Source of the DNA: a virus
Lineage: Duplodnaviria > Caudoviricetes
Reading direction: 5' to 3' (one strand)
IMG/VR virus record: IMGVR_UViG_3300036799_000025
Span: 1-59,099 of that record
DNA length: 59,099 nucleotides
Below the pieces are notes generated by a model. That model ran no database searches. It was given only the letters and a program-made list of their open reading frames with translations, and was not told the origin of the DNA. Each line of letters begins with the position of its first letter. Positions within the stretch are counted from its first letter, which is position 1. Below are positions 34,895 through 47,314 of the stretch, one piece after another. Both the position numbers and the translations under genes were made by a program.

Positions 34895-35803
34895 TCAGAC
34901 TTCCATCGACTGAATCGCCCAAAAGTCGTCTGCGTTCCGATAGCCGCGCGCGCAGAGCCAATTCATGAGGATATACACGTCACCTTTGTCGCCGAAGCCT
35001 TCGCTCCACGAGCCGCGCGTGAGACCCCACTCACGACGATCTCTCGGCACGCGCCACGACAGCGTCTCGTACCCGAAGAGATAGGTGCAGTGCCCGCCAC
35101 GCAGCGGCGCATTCGCAGGCGGCTCGTGCATCACGCCGTCGCTGCCGACATTCTCATACGCGTCGTACACTGAGAAGCCGAAGACGACCGGCGTGCGCGC
35201 TGCGAGCGCAGCCTTCACGTGCGTCTGCACGCCGTTGTTATCGATCGTCGCGTACGTTAGCGCCTGATGCTTGATCGCTTCGTCATACGCGCTCTGCGGC
35301 GGCTTCTCAGTGAAACGCGCAATGTTGTACGGCCAGAGCGTCTCAGGCGCGACGCCGAGCTTCGCGACAGACTTGATGCCGTCTCGAATGAACGCGCCTG
35401 CGTCGTCATTGATCGAGCCTTCCATCGCGCGCTCGTTATAGTAGATCTGCAGGCGGCTCATGAGCGTGCGCACAGCGCCGATGCCCATGCGGTTGTAGCA
35501 CTCTTCGACGACGGCTGCGATGCCGTTGCCAGTGCACGAGCCGAGCGCGCCTTGATCCTTTGCAGGACTCAGTGTGCCATCTTCACGCAGATCGACCTTC
35601 GACGGCAGCTTTGTGAGCGACGGCGCTTTGACGCCGCGAAACTTCGCTGCCTTCTTTGGGTCGAAGACGAAGTCGTTATGATCGGCAGGCTCAGGCTCCC
35701 AGCCTGCGAAGCGCCCACTCGGCAAGATGTGACGCGCCGACTTTGTGATCGACTCGATCGAGATGACGTCGCGCGCTTGCGCGGCCTTGCGAGCAGGTGT
35801 CAC
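34895..35803 (-). CDS. Papain-like C1A cysteine peptidase
   Basis: LPSKVDLR, DQGALGSCT, GGHC, RGSW; GTG start after GAGGG. Confidence 0.9.
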   Translation of the reverse strand: MTPARKAAQARDVISIESITKSARHILPSGRFAGWEPEPADHNDFVFDPKKAAKFRGVKAPSLTKLPSKVDLREDGTLSPAKDQGALGSCTGNGIAAVVEECYNRMGIGAVRTLMSRLQIYYNERAMEGSINDDAGAFIRDGIKSVAKLGVAPETLWPYNIARFTEKPPQSAYDEAIKHQALTYATIDNNGVQTHVKAALAARTPVVFGFSVYDAYENVGSDGVMHEPPANAPLRGGHCTYLFGYETLSWRVPRDRREWGLTRGSWSEGFGDKGDVYILMNWLCARGYRNADDFWAIQSMEV

Positions 35804-35840
35804 TGAGACGTGCCCTCGGTTGGAGATGAGCGAAGCGTCA

Positions 35841-36113
35841 TCAGGCGTCGACGACGAGTAGATCGCTAGAGCCGACCGCTTCGAGAATCGCGCCAAGCGC
35901 ACGCTTGACGCCGTGCTTCCGCGTGTACGACTCGCCTGAGTCTGCGAGGATCTTGCCGTTACGACTGACGAGACGCCAGCGCCAGCCTGTGCGCACGTTG
36001 CTCGCGTCCTGATAGATCTCGAAGCGCGGCTTCTGTACGCGCAGCGACGCTGCGCGCCTGCGTCGCGTGACACGCACGCCGTTCAGCTCAGCGCCGACTG
36101 CGTAGCGCGTCAT
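35841..36113 (-). CDS. YegP/DUF1508 family protein
   Basis: FEIYQD..WRWRLVSRNGKILADSGESY. Confidence 0.85.
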   Translation of the reverse strand: MTRYAVGAELNGVRVTRRRRAASLRVQKPRFEIYQDASNVRTGWRWRLVSRNGKILADSGESYTRKHGVKRALGAILEAVGSSDLLVVDA

Positions 36114-39990: not shown

Positions 39991-40229
39991 CGTGCGTTCT
40001 CTATCTCTAGTCGCTCGACGACAGCCGTCAGCTCTTTGATCATCGTCTGATGATTCTGGCTCGCGACGAAGCGCTGATTCTCGATCTCGCCGAGCAGTGA
40101 CTGTGCCTTAAAGATCATCGGGCCCAGCGCACGATCTTTCTTCCCTGTCGCACGCAGCCACTCAAGACGCTCGCGCAGTCGGGTGATCGCGAAGTCCATT
40201 GCATAGCTCATCGCTGTCAGATCGCTCAT
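39987..40229 (-). CDS. Hypothetical protein
   Basis: Coupled overlaps. Confidence 0.55.
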   Translation of the reverse strand: MSDLTAMSYAMDFAITRLRERLEWLRATGKKDRALGPMIFKAQSLLGEIENQRFVASQNHQTMIKELTAVVERLEIENAR

Positions 40230-40930
40230 CGCTTGTCGCCGTTCGTTGAGGGTTCATGCTCAATCACCTTCACAGGCGCGCCGAGCATGATCTGCTCGAC
40301 ACTTACGCCCTCAAGTTGTCCCTGTGCCCTTGCACGCGCAAGCGCACGACTCGCGATCTCGCTCAGTGCGAAGAAGGCACTCTCAGGTGTCATCGCGGCG
40401 ACCTTCTGCGCCGTGGTCGCCTTGCCTTCGTTCGGCACGTCAGGCAGGAGCTGCACCGCGACCGCCTTGTCGAGCCCGAAGAGTCTGATCGAGATCTCGA
40501 TCAGTCGCGCACACGCGTGATACTTCTTGTCAGCGAGCGCTCGCGCGTACAGATCGTTGATGCGAGCGAACGTCGTGCCGAGCACTAGCTCACCCTTCTT
40601 GCTCAGCTCTCGACCTTCAGCAGCGATCAGGAGCTTCGCCTTCCTGATGTACTCATCGAGCTGACGCGTCTTCGGCATCTCGTCGTCGCCCCACGCGTTG
40701 ATCGGCTCAGCGATGCGCACGCCACGCGCATCAGTGCTGCCGTTTCGCCAGTCAGCACGCGCCTTGATCTCACGCTCGCGCTGGATTGCACAGAGCTTAT
40801 AGATGTCCTGCGTACGCTGGCCGTCGCGCAGGAAGCTGTAAACCTGTTGCACGCGCAGACTTACTTGGCTTTGTGTCGCTTTCGGCGCTTTGAGCGACGC
40901 GCGTCTCGCCTTCTCGCTGCCTTCTGACAT
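40226..40930 (-). CDS. Putative terminase small subunit (HTH)
   Basis: KATQSQVSLRVQQVY..RQLDEYIRKAK..RINDLYARA..RLFGL. Confidence 0.55.
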   Translation of the reverse strand: MSEGSEKARRASLKAPKATQSQVSLRVQQVYSFLRDGQRTQDIYKLCAIQREREIKARADWRNGSTDARGVRIAEPINAWGDDEMPKTRQLDEYIRKAKLLIAAEGRELSKKGELVLGTTFARINDLYARALADKKYHACARLIEISIRLFGLDKAVAVQLLPDVPNEGKATTAQKVAAMTPESAFFALSEIASRALARARAQGQLEGVSVEQIMLGAPVKVIEHEPSTNGDKR

Positions 40931-40948: not shown

Positions 40949-42103
40949 TCAGGACGACGCAGAAGGCGTCTGGCTGCTCGCTGCAGGCTCGATCGCGCTG
41001 TCAGGCTGTACCCATGACGCAGCTTCTGCGATGCGTGCGCGAGCGCCTTGCATGATCTCGCGCAGCTCGATGATCGCGCCTGTGGCGTCGCGGATCTCAT
41101 TCGCGATCGCGCGTAAGGTGTTGCCTGCCTCAGTCGTCGAGAGCGAGAAGCGCTCGCGAGCGCGCGTCTTCTCTTTAATCTGTGCTTCGACGAAGCGCTC
41201 GAATAACTCGGCTTCGCTGCTGCAATGCGCCGCCGCGTATCTGAGCGCGGAGAGCGAGATCTCGCGCAGTCGGCTATCGACGACGAGTGCGATCGCGCCG
41301 AGCGTGCCTTGCTGCGAGATCAGCGCTTGATCGATGAGCTGTGCGCGCCGACGCCACGCGTCGTGCTCAGTGCTGAGCTGTCGTGCCGTCTCGGCGTTCG
41401 CGTCTGCGAGCTGTGTCAGTCGATCGATCTCGCTCTGTGTGCTCTTAGCCGCTTGCGTGCGTAGCTCATCGAAGGCGCTCGTATGCAGCGTCGTGTAGCC
41501 TGCTTTCTTGAGCGTCTCGTCGAGCCAGCAGAAGCCGACATTCGTGCCGAGCCATTGCACGACAGTCGCCGCGACTGTCGCATCACGCTGCGTATACAGC
41601 TCGTCGTCATCCTCAGACGACCACGAGCGCGCACGATATTCGTTCGCGAGCGCGAGATGCACAGGACGCCATGCCCCAGGCGTGCCCTTTGGCACGGTGA
41701 TCGAGCTGAGTGCTGCGAGGATATGATCATCGCGCTGCGCCTGCTCCCACGCGTCAGCGAAAGCCTTCTCGCGCAAGCATCCGTGATAATTGCACTTCTC
41801 GCCCTCGACGCGATCGTGCAGCACGCCGCGGTGCACGATCGGCGCAGGCTCGCCGTCGATGACGACGTCGCCTGACTCAGGTCGCTCACTGACGTTGAGT
41901 CGATGCGCCTCGCGCAGATGCGCGACAAACTCGCTGCGCGACCACTCGACAGCGCTGCACTCGACCGGCAGCGGATCGTTCGGATACGAGAGTTTGCAAT
42001 GATACGAGCCGTCGTCGTGCAGCTCGCCGTGCACGATCTTGCTCGCTTCCTCAGCGCACGCGTTGCACAGTCCCTGCGTGCCATGCTTGCAGACGAAGCT
42101 CAT
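40949..42103 (-). CDS. Hypothetical multi-domain protein (Zn fingers plus coiled coil)
   Basis: CKH..CNAC; C..C..HLREAH. Confidence 0.6.
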   Translation of the reverse strand: MSFVCKHGTQGLCNACAEEASKIVHGELHDDGSYHCKLSYPNDPLPVECSAVEWSRSEFVAHLREAHRLNVSERPESGDVVIDGEPAPIVHRGVLHDRVEGEKCNYHGCLREKAFADAWEQAQRDDHILAALSSITVPKGTPGAWRPVHLALANEYRARSWSSEDDDELYTQRDATVAATVVQWLGTNVGFCWLDETLKKAGYTTLHTSAFDELRTQAAKSTQSEIDRLTQLADANAETARQLSTEHDAWRRRAQLIDQALISQQGTLGAIALVVDSRLREISLSALRYAAAHCSSEAELFERFVEAQIKEKTRARERFSLSTTEAGNTLRAIANEIRDATGAIIELREIMQGARARIAEAASWVQPDSAIEPAASSQTPSASS

Positions 42104-42543
42104 ATGCGCAGCGCCTCAGCAGGCGCGTCAGCTTCCTTGCCGCCCTGATAGTGCTCGCGCGCGTAGTCTTCCATACGATCAGCCTGCGCTGTGCAGGCGC
42201 GCACGAAGCGCTCGTCGCCGTGATGCATCTTCGCATAGGCGCGCACGACGCTCGGCGCGATCTGATCCTTCGCGCGCAGTAAGAAGACAGGCTCGTCGAC
42301 AGGGATTGCCGCCATTGGCTGACGATCACCGAAGCGATCGAACATATACGGATGCAGCGCCTGCAGCAGTGCTGACAGCGTGCGCGAGATGTACCTGAGA
42401 TCAGGCTCGACGCCTGAGCTACGCGCTGCCTGCATCATCGGAAGCTGCGTCTGCAGCGTCATCGCGCCGAGATAGGCAGCGCCGACGTCACCGAGCTGCG
42501 TGAGATCCTGAATGTGATCGTAATCGCTGCGTGCGTGCCTCAT
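42100..42543 (-). CDS. Conserved phage protein (DEPVFLLRAxD family)
   Basis: MRHARSDY..IPVDEPVFLLRAKDQIAPSVVRAY. Confidence 0.7.
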   Translation of the reverse strand: MRHARSDYDHIQDLTQLGDVGAAYLGAMTLQTQLPMMQAARSSGVEPDLRYISRTLSALLQALHPYMFDRFGDRQPMAAIPVDEPVFLLRAKDQIAPSVVRAYAKMHHGDERFVRACTAQADRMEDYAREHYQGGKEADAPAEALRI

Positions 42544-42827
42544 TGCTTCGCCTCTTGTGCAGTTAAGTGTTTGCGCATACGCGCGAGCAGCTTTGCGCGT
42601 CGCGCCTGACGCTTCTCTCGTGCAGGCGCATGATCGATGATCGAGCGCTGCGTGACCTGCCACTTCGCGCGCGTGTGCACGATTATGCTCGTCTTCAGCA
42701 ATGCACGATGCACGCGCTGTGCATGGCGACGCCGCGACTGACCGAATAGCTCGCGATCGCAGAGCTTGCAGCGATAACGAAATGAGCCCGCGCTCGCGAA
42801 GAGATCGACGTACTCATCGAGCTGCAT
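42540..42827 (-). CDS. C2H2-like Zn-finger protein
   Basis: YRCKLCDREL..HAQRVH. Confidence 0.55.
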   Translation of the reverse strand: MQLDEYVDLFASAGSFRYRCKLCDRELFGQSRRRHAQRVHRALLKTSIIVHTRAKWQVTQRSIIDHAPAREKRQARRAKLLARMRKHLTAQEAKQ

Positions 42828-42984
42828 TGCCGCTGCTGACGCGATCGAGCTGCCAGAGCGTCTTCTGCAGCTCAGGGTAGTCTGCATGGAGCTTCGCCAT
42901 CGCGTCGCTCGTCAGCGTCGCTGCGTAGTAGGCGCGTAGCACGGCAAAGATCGCCTCCTGCAGCTCGTCACTGAGTACTTTCAT
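42814..42984 (-). CDS. Hypothetical protein
   Basis: AGGAG RBS, MKVLSDE. Confidence 0.5.
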   Translation of the reverse strand: MKVLSDELQEAIFAVLRAYYAATLTSDAMAKLHADYPELQKTLWQLDRVSSGNAAR

Positions 42985-43276
42985 CGCGCTCGCTCCTGTC
43001 GTCTCTGTCGATCGTGAAGTGTGGCGCACCGACGATGTTGTAGATGCGATTCAGTGCATCAGCAAGAATGCACGCACGCCGCTGCGCTGCCTCGCTCGTC
43101 AGCGCCTGCTCGTCTGCATAGACGCCTTCGCTCAAGCGCAGCAGGAACGTCGCGTGCGGCGCGCAGACGCACCACTCGCCTGTCGCCGCAAGACGCGCAG
43201 GTCGCCAATGATTGCTCTCAGTCACGCGCGCAGTATACACCGAGGCGCTGCCGATCGCGATTGTGCGCATCGTCAC
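42968..43276 (-). CDS. Hypothetical protein
   Basis: Tiling ORF. Confidence 0.5.
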   Translation of the reverse strand: MTMRTIAIGSASVYTARVTESNHWRPARLAATGEWCVCAPHATFLLRLSEGVYADEQALTSEAAQRRACILADALNRIYNIVGAPHFTIDRDDRSERDESTQ

Positions 43277-44140
43277 TCAGTCCGTTGCCCGTGTGACGAG
43301 CGTCATGCCGTACTCGTCGATCGGCTGCTCGAAGATGGCTGGATCAATGTCTGTGCGTCGACGCAAACGATTGCGTTTGAACGGTCGATAATCGACGTGA
43401 TGCTGCCAGCGACCAAACTTGCGCGAGACACGCACGACGTCAGGATGCTTTGCTGCTAGCTCCTGCGCCATTGCCAGCCGACCGTCAAACTCAGTGCCGT
43501 CCGGGTTGAGCTTCTTTACATAGTGCGGCGTATTGCCGCCGTTCAGCGTCATCGTCACAGCCTTGCCGATGAGGAAGGTATTAAAGAGCACAGTGCAGTA
43601 GCCGTCTTTCAGGAAGCGCAGCGCGAGATCTGTGTCGTCATTGTAGAAACCCTCGAAGCGATGCGGCACGCGGTTGTCGAGCAAATAGCACGAGTACACG
43701 CGCGTGTTGAGAATGAATGGCGGGATCACGTCACGATGCTTCGCAAAATATTTGTAATTCGGTCCTGCCATTGGCACGTTCTCATAACGATCGACGAAGT
43801 CTTCCATCGCGCGCAGCGTGCCGCTGCTGTGCACGCGCAAGATCAGATTGCGATTGAATCGCAAGAGCCCTCTGATGTTGTCGTCCATCTGCCAGTGACG
43901 CGCAGCGCCGCGCTCGATCGCGTGCTCCCAAATGAAATTGCGCGCAGCGACGAGCCCGCGATCACGCCACGGCAGCGTGACAATCTTGCGCGCATCGATG
44001 ACGGCTGCATATGCGTCATACTCTTGCGGCTCGACGACGATCGTGTACGGCAGCTCAAGCGCTTCGAGCGTCTTGCTCGTGAAGCGCGTGTCAGCGCGAC
44101 CTTTCGACGGGATATAGATCGGGTATCGCGGCGCGAGCAT
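43277..44140 (-). CDS. TET/JBP-associated (TAGT, GREB1-like) GT-A glycosyltransferase
   Basis: YPIYIPSKGRA, VVEPQEY, ARNFIWEH, WQMDDNI, NTRVYSC, YNDDTDL, GGNT, RWQHHVDY. Confidence 0.85.
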   Translation of the reverse strand: MLAPRYPIYIPSKGRADTRFTSKTLEALELPYTIVVEPQEYDAYAAVIDARKIVTLPWRDRGLVAARNFIWEHAIERGAARHWQMDDNIRGLLRFNRNLILRVHSSGTLRAMEDFVDRYENVPMAGPNYKYFAKHRDVIPPFILNTRVYSCYLLDNRVPHRFEGFYNDDTDLALRFLKDGYCTVLFNTFLIGKAVTMTLNGGNTPHYVKKLNPDGTEFDGRLAMAQELAAKHPDVVRVSRKFGRWQHHVDYRPFKRNRLRRRTDIDPAIFEQPIDEYGMTLVTRATD

Positions 44141-44142
44141 CG

Positions 44143-44862
44143 TTATGCATCCTCATCGTCGTCGTTCTCATCGTCGTCCTGCGCCGCCGCGTCATCGCTC
44201 TCGACATAGGTCTTGTCAGCGTGCACCTTGCGCACCTGCTCAGGATACCAAAAATAATGCGTCTTCAGCGTGATCTCGCGCCCGAGCAGCTTCGCGAAGG
44301 CTGCAATCGCCTCGTCATTCTCGAAGTGCACAGTCAAGTGATGATACGACCGCTCATCGCTGACCTGATACTCAGGCATTCCAGTCCACGTCTGCGAGTA
44401 GTCGCCTGTCAGATGCTGATAGAGCGTCGTGACGTCGTCGTCGTCATAGCCAGTGCCCTTCAGGTTGCCTTGCTCCTGCTGCGCGCGCAGATAGTCGAGC
44501 AAGAGCGCGTCGTTATAGCCGCCTAGCTCTGTGATGCGATTATCTGCCGCGACGATACGTGCGCCGGTCGCGTCATCGCAGTCAATCCACAGCACATTGA
44601 CGCGCTTCACCTTCAGACGACGCAGCGCTTCGCGCGTGCCATGCCCGCCGAGGATGCGACGCGATGACGTCTGCACGCGCACTGCGCCGTAGACGCCGTT
44701 CTCACGCATCGACTCAACGATCGCGCCGATATCGTGATCCTTCGGGTTCCCTGGCCAGTCCTGCAGCGTCTTGAGATCGACGTCTGCTTCGTACGACTGC
44801 GGCAAGAATTTGATGATCTCGCCGAGCTGCGCTGCTGCCTTCTTTGCGTCGGTCGCAGTCAT
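44143..44862 (-). CDS. ParB N-terminal domain fused to a WxGMPE domain
   Basis: PGNPKDHD..ILGGHGT..ADNR; WTGMPEY..VHFEN..FAKLLG..IT.KT..WYP. Confidence 0.8.
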   Translation of the reverse strand: MTATDAKKAAAQLGEIIKFLPQSYEADVDLKTLQDWPGNPKDHDIGAIVESMRENGVYGAVRVQTSSRRILGGHGTREALRRLKVKRVNVLWIDCDDATGARIVAADNRITELGGYNDALLLDYLRAQQEQGNLKGTGYDDDDVTTLYQHLTGDYSQTWTGMPEYQVSDERSYHHLTVHFENDEAIAAFAKLLGREITLKTHYFWYPEQVRKVHADKTYVESDDAAAQDDDENDDDEDA

Positions 44863-45497
44863 ACGCGCCCACGCTCGCGATCGCAGTGAAATTCAAGCAC
44901 GCCGAGCGCCATGAGCACGTTCTCATCATCGAGATCACTGCCTGCGCTCGTGCTGCGCAGGATGCCGTCATACGGTCGCTTCGCGAGATCCTGCATGCGT
45001 GCTCGTGCTGCGAGCAAGAGCTGCTCGCGTGCAGGCGTCTTCGACGCACGGCGCTGCATCCAACCCATCTCGCTGCCGTGCGTGCGAATCTGATAGCACG
45101 TGATGCGATCGACGTCTGCGTCGAGCGCTGCCGCTTCGATGAGCCCGAAGTGATTGCCGAGCCCGAAGGCGGTGCCAGTCGCTTCGCCTGACTTCTTGCG
45201 CTTCGCGCTCTTGAAACCGCCGAGGATGATGTCAGCAGGTCGCTCGATCACGACTTCGTCGACGTGATGCGCGCTGAGATACTGACGCGTCTTCTCGAAG
45301 AGCGGCGCGCGGCGCTGCGATGCGCTGCGATTATTCGCTGCGCCCTGCGTCTTGATGATCTCTACGCGCACGAGTCGCGCCTGATCGAGCGAATAGATGC
45401 GCTGTCGCGACAGCACGCCTGCAGGATTGCCGTCAGGCAGTGCGACGATGATCATGCCCGTCGTCGCACCAGGGTCGAAGGATGCGATCGTGATCAT
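44859..45497 (-). CDS. RuvC-like Holliday junction resolvase
   Basis: IASFDPGATTG, VVIERP, C-terminal DENVLMALG. Confidence 0.7.
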   Translation of the reverse strand: MITIASFDPGATTGMIIVALPDGNPAGVLSRQRIYSLDQARLVRVEIIKTQGAANNRSASQRRAPLFEKTRQYLSAHHVDEVVIERPADIILGGFKSAKRKKSGEATGTAFGLGNHFGLIEAAALDADVDRITCYQIRTHGSEMGWMQRRASKTPAREQLLLAARARMQDLAKRPYDGILRSTSAGSDLDDENVLMALGVLEFHCDRERGRV

Positions 45498-45706: not shown

Positions 45707-45936
45707 CGTGTGCTCTGCTTAGGTGGCTCGATTGTCCAGCCGAATGAGCGCAGCACTGTGCAAATACGCTCATCCGCATCGAAGTCGCGAGCATGCGCCT
45801 GCGTGCCGAGGCACAGCACGACGAAGTCCTCATTCTTTGCGAGCGGCTTCCACGTGAGGCGCATTCGCGCCTTGCCGTCGTCGTCGCGACGGACTTCCTG
45901 CGCGCTCGACATACGCACAATGTCGCCGGGATTCAT
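45703..45936 (-). CDS. Hypothetical protein
   Basis: Coupled overlaps. Confidence 0.55.
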   Translation of the reverse strand: MNPGDIVRMSSAQEVRRDDDGKARMRLTWKPLAKNEDFVVLCLGTQAHARDFDADERICTVLRSFGWTIEPPKQSTR

Positions 45937-46610
45937 CGCGCACTCGACTTCGCCGTGAGTAGCAGCGCACTCTTGTCGCCTGCGCCGTACTTCGCGAGCT
46001 GTGCATGCCCTTCCTTCGAGCTGAGAGTCTTGCGCAGCAGCTTACGCTGCGCATTGATCTGCGCACAGATCATCTGCAGGCCTGCCCACGTCTCAGGCGT
46101 GAAGCGCAGCAGTGAGCCGTCGCCGCGATAGCGACTGCTCGTGTACGGCAGGCGCAATGTCTCGCCGTCTTTCAGCTCGCCCCACTTTTCGCTGCGCGCG
46201 AGCCGCTCGTCGTCAGGGATGACGTCATCGCTCTCGTCGTCTGCGAGTCGCCAGTCGAGTTTGCGCCACACGCCGCCAGGCGTCTTGCCGACGAAGAATC
46301 GATCGATCTCGACTGAGATCTCTGCAGCTTCGTCTGTGTCCTGCTTGCGCGAGCGCTCGCTGTACGAGTAGCTGTCGTGCCCTTCAGTGACGCTGATAAT
46401 CGGCGTCCACTCGATCGACAGGCCTTTGCTCAGGATCTGCTTCGCCCACTGCCTGACGATTGAGAGATCGCGATCGCTCTTCGTGTCTTCGAGAATCGTG
46501 CAGTAAAACCAGCCTGTCGACTTCTCGAAGCGAATCTCAGCGCTGCGTCCTGTGATCGCGTCTTCGATGATTTCGAGCTTCGAGCCTTTCGGCTTGTCAC
46601 TGTGTCTCAT
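45933..46610 (-). CDS. Hypothetical protein
   Basis: Start MRHSDK at 46610. Confidence 0.6.
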   Translation of the reverse strand: MRHSDKPKGSKLEIIEDAITGRSAEIRFEKSTGWFYCTILEDTKSDRDLSIVRQWAKQILSKGLSIEWTPIISVTEGHDSYSYSERSRKQDTDEAAEISVEIDRFFVGKTPGGVWRKLDWRLADDESDDVIPDDERLARSEKWGELKDGETLRLPYTSSRYRGDGSLLRFTPETWAGLQMICAQINAQRKLLRKTLSSKEGHAQLAKYGAGDKSALLLTAKSSAR

Positions 46611-46911
46611 TGCTCTTGTACTGCGTGAAAAGGTTTGATTCAGCGCCGAGCGTGCCGTCGACTTTGACTTTGACGTCTTCGATGCAGCGCCTGACGGCGG
46701 TGAGATACTCGCGCGAGAGCACAGCGCGCCCGTCGCCGGTCGGCGCGCGACGATACGCACGCCAGAGCTGACGCTGCAGCTCCTGCGACACCATGCCCCA
46801 ATGCTTCGGGCACATGAGCAAGCGATGCGGCACGTCGAGCGTGCAGGCCGGTCGGCCTTGCACCTGCACGTCAGCGGCTGCGCAGCGATGCAACCCGCGC
46901 GCGTTAGGCAT
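46597..46911 (-). CDS. Conserved Cys/His phage protein
   Basis: HRC..C..VPHRLLMCPKHWGMV..LWRAY. Confidence 0.6.
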   Translation of the reverse strand: MPNARGLHRCAAADVQVQGRPACTLDVPHRLLMCPKHWGMVSQELQRQLWRAYRRAPTGDGRAVLSREYLTAVRRCIEDVKVKVDGTLGAESNLFTQYKSNETQ

Positions 46912-47314
46912 CAGGCGAGCGCCCCGTTGCGCGCAGCAGGCCTGCAGACAGCTCGCGCAGCGCACTCGTCTTGCCTGCGTTGCGATTCGCATCGAGAAAG
47001 TCAGCGAGCGAATCGAGCGCGACCCCGTACTCAGCAGAGATGCCAGTACTGCCGCTCTCGTCTTCGTCTGTGTTCAGGCAGTGCTCAGGCGGCGGCGGCG
47101 CAGCATCCTCATCGCTGAGATCTGCGTACACGCCATCAGCGACGATCGAGCCGAGATCTGTGTCGTCGACGAAGCGATACAGCGCACGATAGCGGCGCGC
47201 ATCGTCGAAGATCTCGCTCATCTCATCGCTCGTGATCTCGCCGATCAGGAAGCGCATAACGCGCTCTTCGATGTCATCGCGCCGGATCTCTTCCTTCGTT
47301 TTGACTCTGCTCAT
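46904..47314 (-). CDS. Hypothetical protein with DAxRYR motif
   Basis: FDDARRYRAL. Confidence 0.55.
   Translation of the reverse strand: MSRVKTKEEIRRDDIEERVMRFLIGEITSDEMSEIFDDARRYRALYRFVDDTDLGSIVADGVYADLSDEDAAPPPPEHCLNTDEDESGSTGISAEYGVALDSLADFLDANRNAGKTSALRELSAGLLRATGRSPDA

Follow-up and report, generated by a model that had tools for sequence, protein, structure and literature searches.

The window, a complete viral record of 59,099 bp with direct terminal repeats, carries on its minus strand two adjacent ORFs, at 44143-44862 (239 aa) and 43277-44140 (287 aa), which are part of a tightly packed one-strand operon. The gene upstream of the 239-aa ORF overlaps it by 4 bp, the two ORFs are separated by 2 bp, and the gap to the gene that follows is 0 bp; we read the spacing of the pair as translational coupling. 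The gene just upstream (44859-45497) was assigned via Atlas to the RuvC family (resolvase), a RecT gene is present in the same genome, and the pair lies among recombination genes. PHROGs gave no match for 40226-40930, 40949-42103, 42100-42663, 42968-43276, 44859-45497, 45933-46760 and 46904-47314, and of the 20 larger non-structural ORFs that were scanned, 12 likewise remain without one. Four flanking ORFans had no significant relative among PDB sequences (best E 0.12), and an 8-kb megablast query found no match in the phage collection and no close annotated relative.

The 287-aa protein belongs to the TAGT family of GT-A glycosyltransferases and is the candidate catalytic subunit. It matches the Pfam family TAGT (PF20691) with E 1.3e-40 and 140 bits (cut-off 27.5), its residues 6-200 covering model positions 1-203 of 205, as well as phrog_842 (E 2.4e-40), and it is 33-54% identical to 20 orthologues (alignment A5). 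In the alignment of 21 orthologues from which motif conservation was read, D86-D87-N88, the motif at 167-171, K193, G201-G202-N203 and R244 show complete or almost complete conservation, and the window protein has them all. D86-D87-N88 (43877-43885, minus strand), identical in 21 of 21 sequences, is presumably the DXD-like metal/sugar-nucleotide motif of GT-A enzymes. At the second acidic motif the window protein reads N167-D168-D169-T170-D171 where the consensus is N-E-D-T-D, a conservative change from E to D within the family form N-[ED]-D-T-D. The coordinates, the PF20691 match and the conserved acidic motifs bear out the sequence-only reading, which had described an adjacent two-gene unit with intact GT-A motifs. 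Judged by these motifs the TAGT appears intact, and its transfer of sugar to DNA is putative. The Pfam match stops at residue 200, and residues 201-287 (43280-43540, minus strand) form a clade-specific C-terminal extension. The protein is basic (pI 9.41), as are its orthologues (median pI 9.35; 90% of the 21 above 7.5). Neither it nor the 239-aa protein contains a transmembrane-like or signal-like segment, and both were read as soluble.

The 239-aa protein (44143-44862, minus strand), a putative adaptor subunit, was recognised by ParB-like PHROGs (phrog_723, E 3.9e-30), by its AF2 model and by tblastn. Pfam returned no family at E<=1 and hence no sequence match to PF02195 (ParB_N), which the relatives P0020 and P0012 match weakly, below the cut-off. 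The AF2 model has a pLDDT of 84 overall and of 88-97 over residues 21-150, and in a Foldseek search against the PDB it retrieved Caulobacter ParB (7bm8, E 5.9e-7, TM by target 0.59) together with proteins from Bacillus (6sdk) and Myxococcus (7bnr/7bnk), KorB (8qa8), PadC (6ryk) and Noc (7ng0); sulfiredoxin and SbnI ranked lower. Together with pLDDT and alignment A4, these matches delimit a ParB/Srx-fold N-terminal domain plus helical linker at residues ~22-152 (44407-44799, minus strand). By its predicted structure the N-terminal domain is a ParB-N fold that resembles CTP-binding ParB clamps. Partition ParB proteins have a parS-binding HTH domain after the N-domain and a G-E-R-R-x-R CTP motif. 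In the model of the window protein no HTH DNA-binding domain follows ParB-N, no further domain separates the helical linker from the partner segment described below, and the family motif G-H-x-R-x-x-A reads G-G-H-G-T-R-E-A; no ParA was recognised in the genome. ParB-like proteins matching it by tblastn occur in 286 phage records. Matches to actinophage ParB-methylase fusions, which extend out to residue ~186-195, were rejected as a ParB-methylase link and reflect overlap with the helical linker. The acidic C-terminal tail (residues 216-239, 44146-44217, minus strand; 13 D/E of 24) is not kept in relatives, and pLDDT falls below 50 for residues 228-238.

Between the ParB-N part and the tail, at residues ~154-210 (44233-44403, minus strand), lies a segment of ~60 aa which we call the WxGMPE or partner domain, delimited by alignments A2 and A6 and a profile search. 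Its signature is W-x-G-M-P-E-[FY] ... h-h-V-x-F-x-x-x-E-D-x-x-x-F-x-x-L-h-G ... T-x-K-T-K-x-h-W-[YFW]-P, in which W24, M27, P28, F45, F54 and P72 (domain numbering) are invariant in 75 sequences. The window protein matches the domain HMM with E 2.8e-17, and the TAGT start lies 2 bp downstream. The domain is un-named: no Pfam family matched it, its profile found no solved relative among PDB sequences (best E 0.22), BFVD returned only uncharacterised viral relatives, and its Atlas neighbours are viral hypothetical proteins throughout. It is nonetheless a large viral family, since the profile search gave 3,506 clusters (at 50% identity) at E<=1e-3. Compared with 48,161 chains, the model of the domain alone scored no higher than Z 2.0 (rmsd 3.2 over 40 aligned residues), which does not show a new fold. 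The model consists of one helix between unpaired extended segments, and for this reason the domain may need its partner in order to fold. With a median pI of 4.9 the domain is acidic, which argues against its being itself the DNA-binding element and likewise against its C-terminal half as a DNA binder. The domain HMM does not pick up the segment in Gordonia phage Stormageddon gp207 (unreported at E<=10) or in Microbacterium phage Cinna gp1 (E 0.088).

The constant partner of the window TAGT clade is this ~60-aa segment, and ParB-N is an optional add-on. The domain HMM places the segment next to or within the TAGT in the window and in 32 of 39 loci from viruses or phages; among 79 independent loci of bacterial and archaeal assemblies, the segment accompanies the TAGT in 71. 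Of these 79 loci, 29 encode ParB-N plus domain, 27 a stand-alone domain, 14 a fusion with the TAGT and one a triple fusion, and eight lack the domain; ParB-N is present in 35. In 66 of the 71 loci the domain ends 5-137 bp upstream of the TAGT on the same strand, and in other phages the free partner-domain protein has 80-110 aa. A homologue of the 239-aa protein is encoded directly upstream of the TAGT in 21 of the 39 loci (tblastn). The domain forms the TAGT N-terminus in Aeh1p093 (E 1.3e-18), which we take to be the protein elsewhere called Aeh1ORF087c, and in POP12_148 (6.3e-18), GD1_80, Kuja gp032/033 and NVP1124O_57; further fusions are P0001, P0007, P0013, P0049 and P0098. Among the 86 window proteins only the pair (g62, g63) and, once, g72 found matches in the 39 loci, and an all-against-all comparison of five unrelated complete or near-complete genomes (38-62% GC) left only TAGT and partner as common to all five. 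The cassette is found across hosts of many phyla, the ParB-N plus domain/TAGT architecture for instance in a Chryseobacterium and a Pseudescherichia strain, and in relatives adjoins terminase, an arrangement recurring in 10 non-redundant locus groups, or DNA-metabolism genes.

Conserved linkage and fusions support the earlier claim that the two genes form one functional unit. The sequence-only reading had also made ParB the partner of the enzyme and taken the system for a minimal one. The ParB fusion is indeed present, but the constant partner is WxGMPE, with ParB-N in only 35 of 79 loci; likewise, the module does consist of two genes but is a widespread mobile module rather than a peculiarity of this genome. 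What is new here is the WxGMPE segment as TAGT partner. As far as the accessible texts on TAGT, ParB or the motif go, we found neither a description of the domain nor a phage pairing of ParB with TAGT; supplementary files to PMC13216743, PMC13229309 and the Pyle preprint may contain ParB-GT contigs or TAGT N-terminal extensions. The missing precursor pathway is already in print, as TAGT or GT genes without a known one were noted before (PMC13216743; bioRxiv 10.1101/2023.12.21.572611; PMC8056088).

A predicted complex of partner and TAGT suggests how the two are joined. It reached an ipSAE of 0.76 (runs 0.76, 0.70, 0.80) against 0.01 for the best control, with at least 41% of contacts in common between runs and a partner pLDDT of at least 71. 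This score expresses model confidence rather than a measurement. In its calibration the mark was reached by 58 of the 80 complexes with a solved structure and by 2 of the 110 mismatched pairs, counts that are only roughly valid with our own alignments. As no solved relative of the partner was found, it is unlikely that the docking passed from model memory. The confident interface comprises partner residues 22-36 (protein residues 157-171) and spans W-T-G-M-P-E-Y, that is W159 to Y165 of the window protein (44368-44388, minus strand), whose W, M and P are invariant in the 75 sequences; part of the predicted docking surface is provided by the TAGT C-terminal extension (248-259, 269-281). The prediction supports a model in which the WxGMPE segment docks onto the TAGT via its W-x-G-M-P-E-[FY] motif.

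TAGT was reportedly defined by Iyer et al. in 2013 (NAR). Association with TET/JBP or another hydroxymethyl-pyrimidine pathway, from which, as we take it, the family was named, is absent from this genome as judged by Pfam, six-frame and 5mYOX profile searches. Pfam scans covered 81 of the 86 called ORFs plus three alternative ORFs (84 in total; the five omitted are plus-strand ORFs of 36-58 aa), and the 21 family listings obtained include no methyltransferase, TS, 2OG oxygenase, radical SAM, TGT or DNA polymerase. Six-frame searches for PF12851 (Tet_JBP), PF00303 (Thymidylat_synt), PF00145 (C5-MTase) and PF01555 (N6/N4-MTase) were all negative. Phage 5mYOX was sought among 570 six-frame ORFs with a small profile of eight sequences, the 120 listed homologues being close relatives only (67-90% identical), and with pairwise searches; none was found (best E 0.48), and as a positive control two divergent phage 5mYOX queries detected each other at 8.9e-14. 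Likewise, no sugar-nucleotide gene, alpha/beta-GT or dNTP-pool gene was recognised in the genome. The HMM search for 2OG-Fe, MTase and thymidylate synthase folds that had been proposed as a check was therefore carried out on 84 ORFs and six frames with no such fold found, and the earlier claim that neither a hydroxymethyl-base pathway nor a polymerase is recognisable stands. Among related viral records, a TS-like gene was present in 0 of 37 and TET plus C5-MTase in one of 37, a record without the partner domain.

Taking these data together, we give about an even chance to a split, soluble DNA glycosyltransferase that is tethered to or activated on dsDNA by ParB-N and uses a host sugar donor. 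The two genes would then encode one soluble two-subunit enzyme. Its catalytic GT-A subunit, the 287-aa TAGT, would draw on a host nucleotide-sugar, a donor that we infer because the genome lacks a sugar-nucleotide gene. The 239-aa protein would be the adaptor, its C-terminal WxGMPE segment clipping onto the TAGT while the ParB-type N-domain may recruit the enzyme to double-stranded DNA or keep it there, much as ParB does for phage thymine dioxygenases. Sugar would be added to the phage's own DNA after its replication by the host polymerase, on an acceptor that needs no phage-made hydroxymethyl base. Candidate acceptors named in the sequence-only reading are an unmodified base, the backbone, a base modified by the host, or virion proteins. 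DNA as the target is hinted at by the ParB-N fold, the basic TAGT, the solubility of both proteins and the recombination and terminase neighbours. Against DNA speaks the fact that no recognised gene here makes a glycosylatable (hydroxylated) base, and we know of no precedent for sugar transfer to an unmodified DNA base. A more far-reaching version, in which WxGMPE and TAGT are self-sufficient and place the sugar directly on a canonical base or on the backbone in dsDNA without a hydroxymethylated precursor, is tentative and, in our estimate, somewhat doubtful.

That the pair glycosylates something other than DNA, be it a virion or host protein, RNA, a small molecule or an envelope precursor, with ParB-N as a nucleotide-binding or regulatory module, seems to us unlikely. 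Protein-glycosylating GT-A enzymes are well known, and the lack of an acceptor-making enzyme would be accounted for. The partner domain is also fused to a GT-A of a different, capsule/LPS-type family (Gly_transf_sug/Caps_synth) in P0044 and is thus not specific to a DNA enzyme, and the spread of the cassette over many phyla means that the acceptor must be universal. In the available part of their preprint, Pyle et al. conclude that phages obtained their GTs by repurposing enzymes whose acceptors were diverse (bioRxiv 10.1101/2023.12.21.572611). The solubility of both proteins and the strongly basic character of the TAGT clade argue in the opposite direction, as do the ParB-N fusion, which is the commonest single architecture (29 of 79 loci), and the terminase or DNA-metabolism genes that adjoin the cassettes of relatives. 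In T4-like POP12 the TAGT gene lies just upstream of rIIB, a neighbourhood that holds DNA-modification genes in T-even phages (PMC13390438, in excerpt), and the sole characterised TAGT acts on DNA.

We consider it quite improbable that a cryptic enzyme from a new family supplies a conventional hydroxymethyl (or hydroxy) pyrimidine as the acceptor. Such an enzyme could hide among the ORFans, given the 12 of 20 larger ORFs without PHROG match and the four flanking ones without PDB relative, and PF12851 annotates 83-95% of retrieved phage 5mYOX contigs and misses the rest (O'Toole et al., PMC13229309, in excerpt). Krischvirus SAP, where a glucosylated hmC pathway lacks recognisable genes (PMC13390438, in the accessible text), might be counted in its favour, but as a parallel it is not relevant, no GT having been detected there. 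The empty 5mYOX searches with their working control speak against such an enzyme, and so does the conservation around the cassette: apart from the pair no window protein recurs there (g72 once), the five genomes have no third protein in common, and of the 37 related viral records none has a TS-like gene and a single one, which lacks the partner domain, has TET plus C5-MTase. The ORF directly upstream is a RuvC-family resolvase, and a pre-replicative route is unlikely because phage polymerase and dNTP-pool genes are lacking. Incidental adjacency, with a ParB-like protein serving phage-genome partition or regulation or with the pair as an inactive remnant, is strongly disfavoured and very improbable. 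ParB-like proteins are common in phages, and the window protein has neither the canonical ParB HTH nor a recognised ParA; yet the linkage, seen in 32 of 39 viral or phage loci and 71 of 79 assembly loci, repeated gene fusions, translational coupling, catalytic and docking motifs that are invariant and intact in the window, and a complex prediction far above controls all point to a functional pair.

To our knowledge, every well-understood case of DNA glycosylation in phages begins with a phage-made hydroxymethyl or hydroxy pyrimidine. By contrast, the module described here comprises two genes without an acceptor-making step and is very widespread, with 3,506 clusters for the partner domain alone. 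If DNA is modified, natural DNA-modification chemistry would be extended, with bearing on phage escape from restriction, CRISPR and glycosylase-based defences, and the pair might become a two-gene tool for enzymatic DNA labelling; direct glycosylation, if true, would amount to a previously undescribed type of DNA modification, in thousands of phage lineages, with ParB-N helping the enzyme onto DNA in roughly one third to one half of these. If DNA is not modified, many phage 'DNA glycosyltransferase' annotations are misleading. Either way, the predicted docking segment would provide an account of how a ParB-like protein couples to a modification enzyme, and WxGMPE is a simple sequence marker that sorts TAGT genes into two contexts.

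The characterised member of the TAGT family is the beta-glucosyl-HMC-alpha-glucosyltransferase of T2/T6, which acts on DNA (PMC13216743, in excerpt). The window TAGT shares with it the PF20691 assignment, the GT-A character with DXD-like acidic motifs and the proposed action as a phage enzyme after replication. The T2/T6 enzyme adds a second glucose onto glucosyl-hmC, which derives from dCMP hydroxymethylase and alpha-GT (PMC13216743, accessible part), whereas the window genome has no TS-like enzyme, alpha/beta-GT or polymerase; T6 was absent among the 25 phage records matched by tblastn with the window TAGT. The TAGTs of T4-like Aeromonas phages such as Aeh1 are about 40% identical to the window TAGT and have the same partner domain; in Aeh1 the domain is fused to the TAGT without ParB-N, and this 233-kb phage encodes replication machinery of its own as well as one strong TS-family gene. 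Aeh1ORF087c is listed as 'presumably modifies DNA, unknown base' (PMC8056088).

Phage clusters of C5-MTase, 5mYOX (TET/JBP) and GT-A genes (Burke et al. 2021, PMC8256090; Pyle et al. 2023, bioRxiv 10.1101/2023.12.21.572611) have in common with the window post-replicative GT-A DNA glycosylation, putative in our case, and ParB-like and terminase genes often nearby. Their GTs need 5hmC from MTase and TET, and the window clade shows the opposite. The sole sampled record with TET plus C5-MTase (G037/L039) carries the most distant TAGT (26% identity), which aligns only over residues 10-210 and lacks the C-terminal extension, and no partner domain occurs anywhere in its genome.

A further comparison is with ParB176, which activates 5mYOX176 specifically on dsDNA and, like other 5mYOX-associated ParBs, consists of an NBD and a C-terminal domain that are both required for activation (O'Toole et al. 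2026, PMC13229309, in excerpt). In the same partly available source, the ParB-enzyme complex could not be trapped and mutations of the NTP site left activation standing. The sequence-only reading had cast the ParB fusion as the DNA-side partner, which is plausible, but activation on dsDNA has been shown for 5mYOX and not for a GT; in the literature, as far as the accessible texts go, we found no experimental demonstration that a GT depends on ParB. The window ParB-N gene is flanked by the RuvC-family gene and the TAGT, with no cognate 5mYOX beside it or in the genome, and the partner HMM misses Cinna gp1, a ParB-like protein encoded next to a 5mYOX-like gene. Nevertheless, both systems combine a ParB-N (NBD) without HTH with an adjacent DNA-modifying enzyme (putative here), and judging from the available text the closest structural relatives of both ParBs are the same CTP-ParBs of Myxococcus and Caulobacter. 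In the 5mYOX176/ParB176 system the client is a dioxygenase and the C-terminal part a dimerisation domain (PMC13229309, in excerpt), whereas in the window the client would be a glycosyltransferase and the C-terminal part is the predicted WxGMPE docking segment.

The 287-aa protein encoded at 43277–44140 on the minus strand is a clear TAGT glycosyltransferase, matching Pfam PF20691 with an E-value of 1.3e-40 and 140 bits (cut-off 27.5) and phrog_842 with 2.4e-40. The motifs D-D-N (residues 86–88), N-[ED]-D-T-D (167–171), K193, G-G-N (201–203) and R244, which show little or no variation when aligned with 20 orthologues, are all present in the window; on sequence and motifs, the catalytic protein belongs to the Pfam TAGT family. 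It is basic (pI 9.41; clade median 9.35, with 90% of 21 sequences above 7.5), and a C-terminal extension (residues 201–287) falls outside the Pfam core. Together with the 239-aa adaptor encoded at 44143–44862 (minus strand), it forms the adjacent two-gene unit with intact GT-A motifs that the sequence-only reading had described, both ORFs lying where that reading had placed them.

The pair is part of a run of coupled genes in a viral record of 59,099 bp that is complete and bounded by direct terminal repeats; it has ~62% GC and 86 called ORFs, nearly all on the minus strand. The adaptor gene overlaps the ORF upstream by 4 bp, is separated from the TAGT gene by 2 bp, and the latter abuts the next ORF with a gap of 0 bp. 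The translationally coupled upstream ORF (44859–45497, minus strand) has neither a Pfam nor a PHROG match; an Atlas structural match (TM 0.82), which meets the naming bar of the tool, identifies it as a RuvC-family resolvase. Elsewhere, just upstream of the terminase region, a 392-aa ORF (34895–36073, minus strand) contains a papain-family cysteine protease domain, unusual for a phage (Peptidase_C1, E 4.7e-11, residues 156–370). The closest TAGT relatives among named assemblies are those of two Acidobacteriota/Bryobacteraceae MAGs (L057 and L058; 54–55% identity), and that of an unclassified MAG (L056) is 57% identical. The similarity to the Acidobacteriota MAGs fits the 62% GC of the window and, coming from a mobile gene, is a weak hint at the host lineage.

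Pfam did not match the adaptor even at E ≤ 1. ParB-like PHROGs matched it with an E-value of 3.9e-30, and its AlphaFold model (pLDDT 84 overall, 88–97 over residues 21–150) superposes on CTP-binding ParB proteins, best on that of Caulobacter (7bm8, E 5.9e-7), followed by those of Bacillus (6sdk) and Myxococcus (7bnr), KorB, PadC and Noc. The adaptor is thus predicted to have a ParB-N fold and, as it also contains the predicted docking motif W159-T-G-M-P-E-Y165, the fusion of ParB-N with a WxGMPE segment that had been read from the sequence holds. Absence of an HTH domain argues against a partition ParB, and absence of a dioxygenase from the window against an activator associated with 5mYOX, the phage TET/JBP-type dioxygenase. 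The very acidic tail (44146–44217, minus strand; 13 D/E in 24 residues), which has a pLDDT below 50 at residues 228–238 and is absent from relatives, could be a DNA mimic, a partner-binding tail or plain disorder.

When all window proteins were compared with 39 related loci, of which viral contigs supplied 37 and cultured Vibrio phages two (many of the related records are fragments), matches were limited to TAGT (39 loci), the ParB-like protein (21) and one nuclease (1). In many loci only adaptor residues ~147–220 were matched, directly upstream of TAGT. An HMM built for this segment detected it in 32 of the 39 loci, and in four of the seven missing it (L031, L033, L034 and L037) the TAGT start lies no more than 263 nt from the contig end; L039, the locus of viral record G037, is another of the seven. 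The segment occurs in three forms: as a free ORF of 77–111 aa beside TAGT, as the C-terminus of a ParB-N protein, and as the N-terminus of TAGT. It follows one ParB-N domain in the window and two in loci L028–L030, while L010 encodes a triple fusion of ParB-N, segment and TAGT. Among cultured phages, it is the N-terminal part of annotated TAGT proteins in Aeromonas phage Aeh1 (E 1.3e-18), Pectobacterium phage POP12 (6.3e-18), Paraglaciecola virus GD1, Vibrio phage Kuja (two paralogues) and Vibrio phage 1.124.O, and an unannotated 108-aa ORF in Vibrio phage henriette. Bacterial and archaeal assemblies, scanned independently, yielded 79 loci from many phyla, 71 of them with the segment (27 free, 14 fused to TAGT, one triple fusion, the others behind ParB-N); in 66 of these 71 it lies on the TAGT strand and ends 5–137 bp before that gene. 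The exact architecture of the window was found in prophages of four cultured strains. Judged from this gene linkage, the true partner of TAGT is the small C-terminal segment of the adaptor, which is the constant second component. The proposal of a ParB fusion as TAGT partner therefore stands in part: a two-part fusion of ParB-N and segment is present in 29 of the 79 assembly loci, but what is constant is the segment and not ParB-N.

The cassette varies in several further ways. Loci L028–L030 (4007–5999) carry three genes in a row: one for a 344-aa protein with two ParB-N domains and the segment, one for a radical SAM/SPASM enzyme (E 3.6e-14 and 1.1e-14), and TAGT. The radical SAM enzyme may contribute tailoring or acceptor synthesis that needs no oxygen in this lineage. 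Locus L024 (6004–8121) contains two TAGT paralogues with the segment between them, and genes for UDP-glucose dehydrogenase and an epimerase downstream. The number of parts also varies in L005–L007 (L005, 6001–7458), where one TAGT precedes two segment ORFs, and in P0049, a profile-search match of 979 aa that holds in a single chain four to five segment copies and two TAGT domains. In L011 (record G009; 47 kb, 100% complete by CheckV) a TAGT homologue is divided into two adjoining ORFs (613–912 and 922–1392), which may reflect a frameshift or an assembly error; a second paralogue just precedes it, and parts of the cassette lie at either end of the linear record. In henriette 12B8 (L002, HQ316582.1, 5648–6861) the TAGT homologue (43.5% identity) is unannotated like its partner ORF, with genes for a dUTPase and DNA polymerase a short way downstream.

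The signature of the segment reads W-x-G-M-P-E-[FY], then h-h-V-x-F-x-x-x-E-D-x-x-x-F-x-x-L-h-G, then T-x-K-T-K-x-h-W-[YFW]-P, with W, M, P, F, F and P invariant in 75 sequences. Among 1.84 billion representative proteins, its profile matched 3,506 with E ≤ 1e-3, of which 2,466 reached E ≤ 1e-10; among the best 150 of the 3,506 were 73 short free forms, 50 with ParB-N, seven with TAGT and 20 other forms. No Pfam family covers the segment, its Atlas neighbours are viral hypothetical proteins without exception, and the PDB offered neither a sequence match (best E 0.22) nor a fold match (best Z 2.0 over 48,161 chains). A description of the segment or its motif was not found in the literature searched. 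The segment HMM did not detect it in actinophage ParB–methylase fusions or in gp1 of Microbacterium phage Cinna. The segment is acidic (median pI 4.9), and in P0044 (315 aa) a complete copy precedes a DXD glycosyltransferase of a different GT-A family (Gly_transf_sug/Caps_synth); both features disfavour a role as a simple DNA-binding domain.

Modelled alone, the segment has a confident core (pLDDT 92–96, residues 41–70). Its single helix is flanked on both sides by extended stretches without pairing, a shape that would suit an element packing against another protein. Complex prediction with TAGT and an 83-aa segment, both supplied as alignments, gave an ipSAE of 0.76 (runs 0.76, 0.70 and 0.80), against 0.01 for the best of three controls; when the tool was calibrated, 58 of 80 complexes of solved structure reached the mark, as did 2 of 110 mismatched pairs, counts that are only rough for our own alignments. 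The runs shared at least 41% of contacts, with a partner pLDDT of at least 71. The confident predicted interface comprises adaptor residues 157–171 (Q-T-W-T-G-M-P-E-Y-Q-V-S-D-E-R) and scattered positions in 143–155, and TAGT residues 94–98, 111–115, 131–143 and 248–281. Part of this docking surface belongs to the C-terminal extension, which the canonical, TET-linked TAGT of L039 lacks, its alignment ending at residue 210. The prediction supports binding of the segment by TAGT, and it is very probable that the two proteins bind each other.

The Pfam scan took in 81 of the 86 called ORFs, leaving out five plus-strand ORFs of 36–58 aa, plus three alternative ORFs. The 44 non-structural ORFs gave 11 families (TAGT, RecT, DUF6011, Peptidase_C1, RepL, MarR_2, SNase and four weak ones) and the other 40 gave 10, including terminase, portal, tail parts and an Rv2525c-like glycoside hydrolase; no methyltransferase, thymidylate synthase (TS)-like enzyme, 2OG oxygenase, radical SAM enzyme, transglycosylase or DNA polymerase was found among the 84. 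PF12851, PF00303, PF00145 and PF01555 were likewise absent from a six-frame search of the whole record. Because some phage 5mYOX enzymes escape PF12851, according to O'Toole et al. (PMC13229309), 570 six-frame ORFs were additionally searched with a small 5mYOX profile and two divergent phage sequences, the TET of G037 and gp2 of Cinna. No hit was better than E 0.48, whereas these two queries recognise one another at 8.9e-14. The proposed HMM search for 2OG-Fe, methyltransferase and TS folds thus bears out the impression that the genome has no recognisable hydroxymethyl-base pathway or DNA polymerase, and it exposed no cryptic TET or hydroxymethylase among the hypothetical ORFs.

In the 37 related viral records, four of them at least 90% complete, no TS-like gene was found. 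TET/JBP and C5-methyltransferase genes co-occur in one, G037, which holds the most distant TAGT (26% identity) and has the partner segment nowhere. This single record makes up the canonical, TET-linked side of the comparison, and as loci were picked by similarity to the window TAGT the dichotomy may not hold family-wide. The window and four complete or near-complete carriers (38%, 45%, 50% and 62% GC) were compared all against all, and only TAGT and its partner were common to all five. The small profile detected no 5mYOX within 5 kb of the 79 assembly loci, PF12851 had no match in five whole carrier genomes, and no TET was found in the cultured carriers Aeh1, Kuja, GD1, POP12 and 1.124.O. One strong TS-family gene each was present in Aeh1, Kuja and GD1 (Pfam does not tell plain thymidylate synthases apart), one in two pieces in POP12 and none in 1.124.O. 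The POP12 gene (150787–151871) has an in-frame TAA between its pieces and resembles in this the intron-containing td gene of T4. Recurrent neighbours in relatives are terminase, portal, NAD-dependent sugar epimerase/dehydratase, UDP-glucose dehydrogenase, family-B polymerase and YqaJ, with a radical SAM/SPASM enzyme (L028) and a small-molecule-type methyltransferase (L022) as single cases; cassette neighbours of these types were not found in the window. The gene content compared here is evidence that TAGT and partner travel alone as a self-sufficient two-gene module.

We propose that the pair would form one split, soluble glycosyltransferase, with TAGT as the catalytic subunit acting on a host nucleotide-sugar and the W-x-G-M-P-E-F stretch of the adaptor clipping onto it. 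The ParB-N domain would bring TAGT to double-stranded DNA or keep it there, by analogy with ParB176/5mYOX176. This reading as a whole has about an even chance of being right. DNA is somewhat favoured as the target, on the grounds of TAGT family membership, the ParB-N fusions, the basic charge of TAGT, the absence of TM-like segments, and the neighbourhood of recombination and packaging genes; that the acceptor is something other than DNA is the less likely but still serious option. A conventional hydroxymethyl base supplied by a cryptic enzyme appears unlikely. A wholly new enzyme family may sit among the ORFans, given that 12 of the 20 larger non-structural ORFs are unmatched in PHROGs and four flanking ORFans have no significant relative among PDB sequences, but the absence of a third conserved gene weakens this explanation. 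Incidental adjacency or decay of the pair is very improbable. If the pair glycosylates DNA, these two genes could reveal new DNA chemistry; if it does not, a common annotation could be overturned.

That TAGT or related glycosyltransferases occur without a precursor pathway is already in print. TAGT without alpha- or beta-GT is given for 288 of 753 phage genomes (PMC13216743), ~65% of ~25,000 GT contigs have no 5mYOX or ThyS next to the GT (Pyle et al., bioRxiv 10.1101/2023.12.21.572611), and the Aeh1-type enzyme is entered with an 'unknown base' as its target (PMC8056088). New here are the definition of a constant partner segment, its three architectures, a docking mode supported by structure prediction, and the evidence that the pair travels without further genes. 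A role of ParB in directing modification machinery to DNA is an earlier idea of Aravind, as cited by Burke et al. (PMC8256090). According to O'Toole et al. (PMC13229309), ParB176 activates the thymine dioxygenase 5mYOX176 specifically on double-stranded DNA, both ends of ParB176 being needed and no stable complex being trapped. The layout in Cinna (L041) looks like this published ParB-dependent thymine dioxygenase arrangement: ParB-like gp1 (1–648) and gp2 (645–1598), annotated 'oxidoreductase', lie just before the terminase, and gp2 is a 5mYOX/TET-like dioxygenase (match to the G037 TET, E 8.9e-14; H-x-D ... H-G-V-T-P ... R-x-S pattern). The TAGT of the window, by contrast, departs from its family in the very feature behind the family's name, the association with TET.
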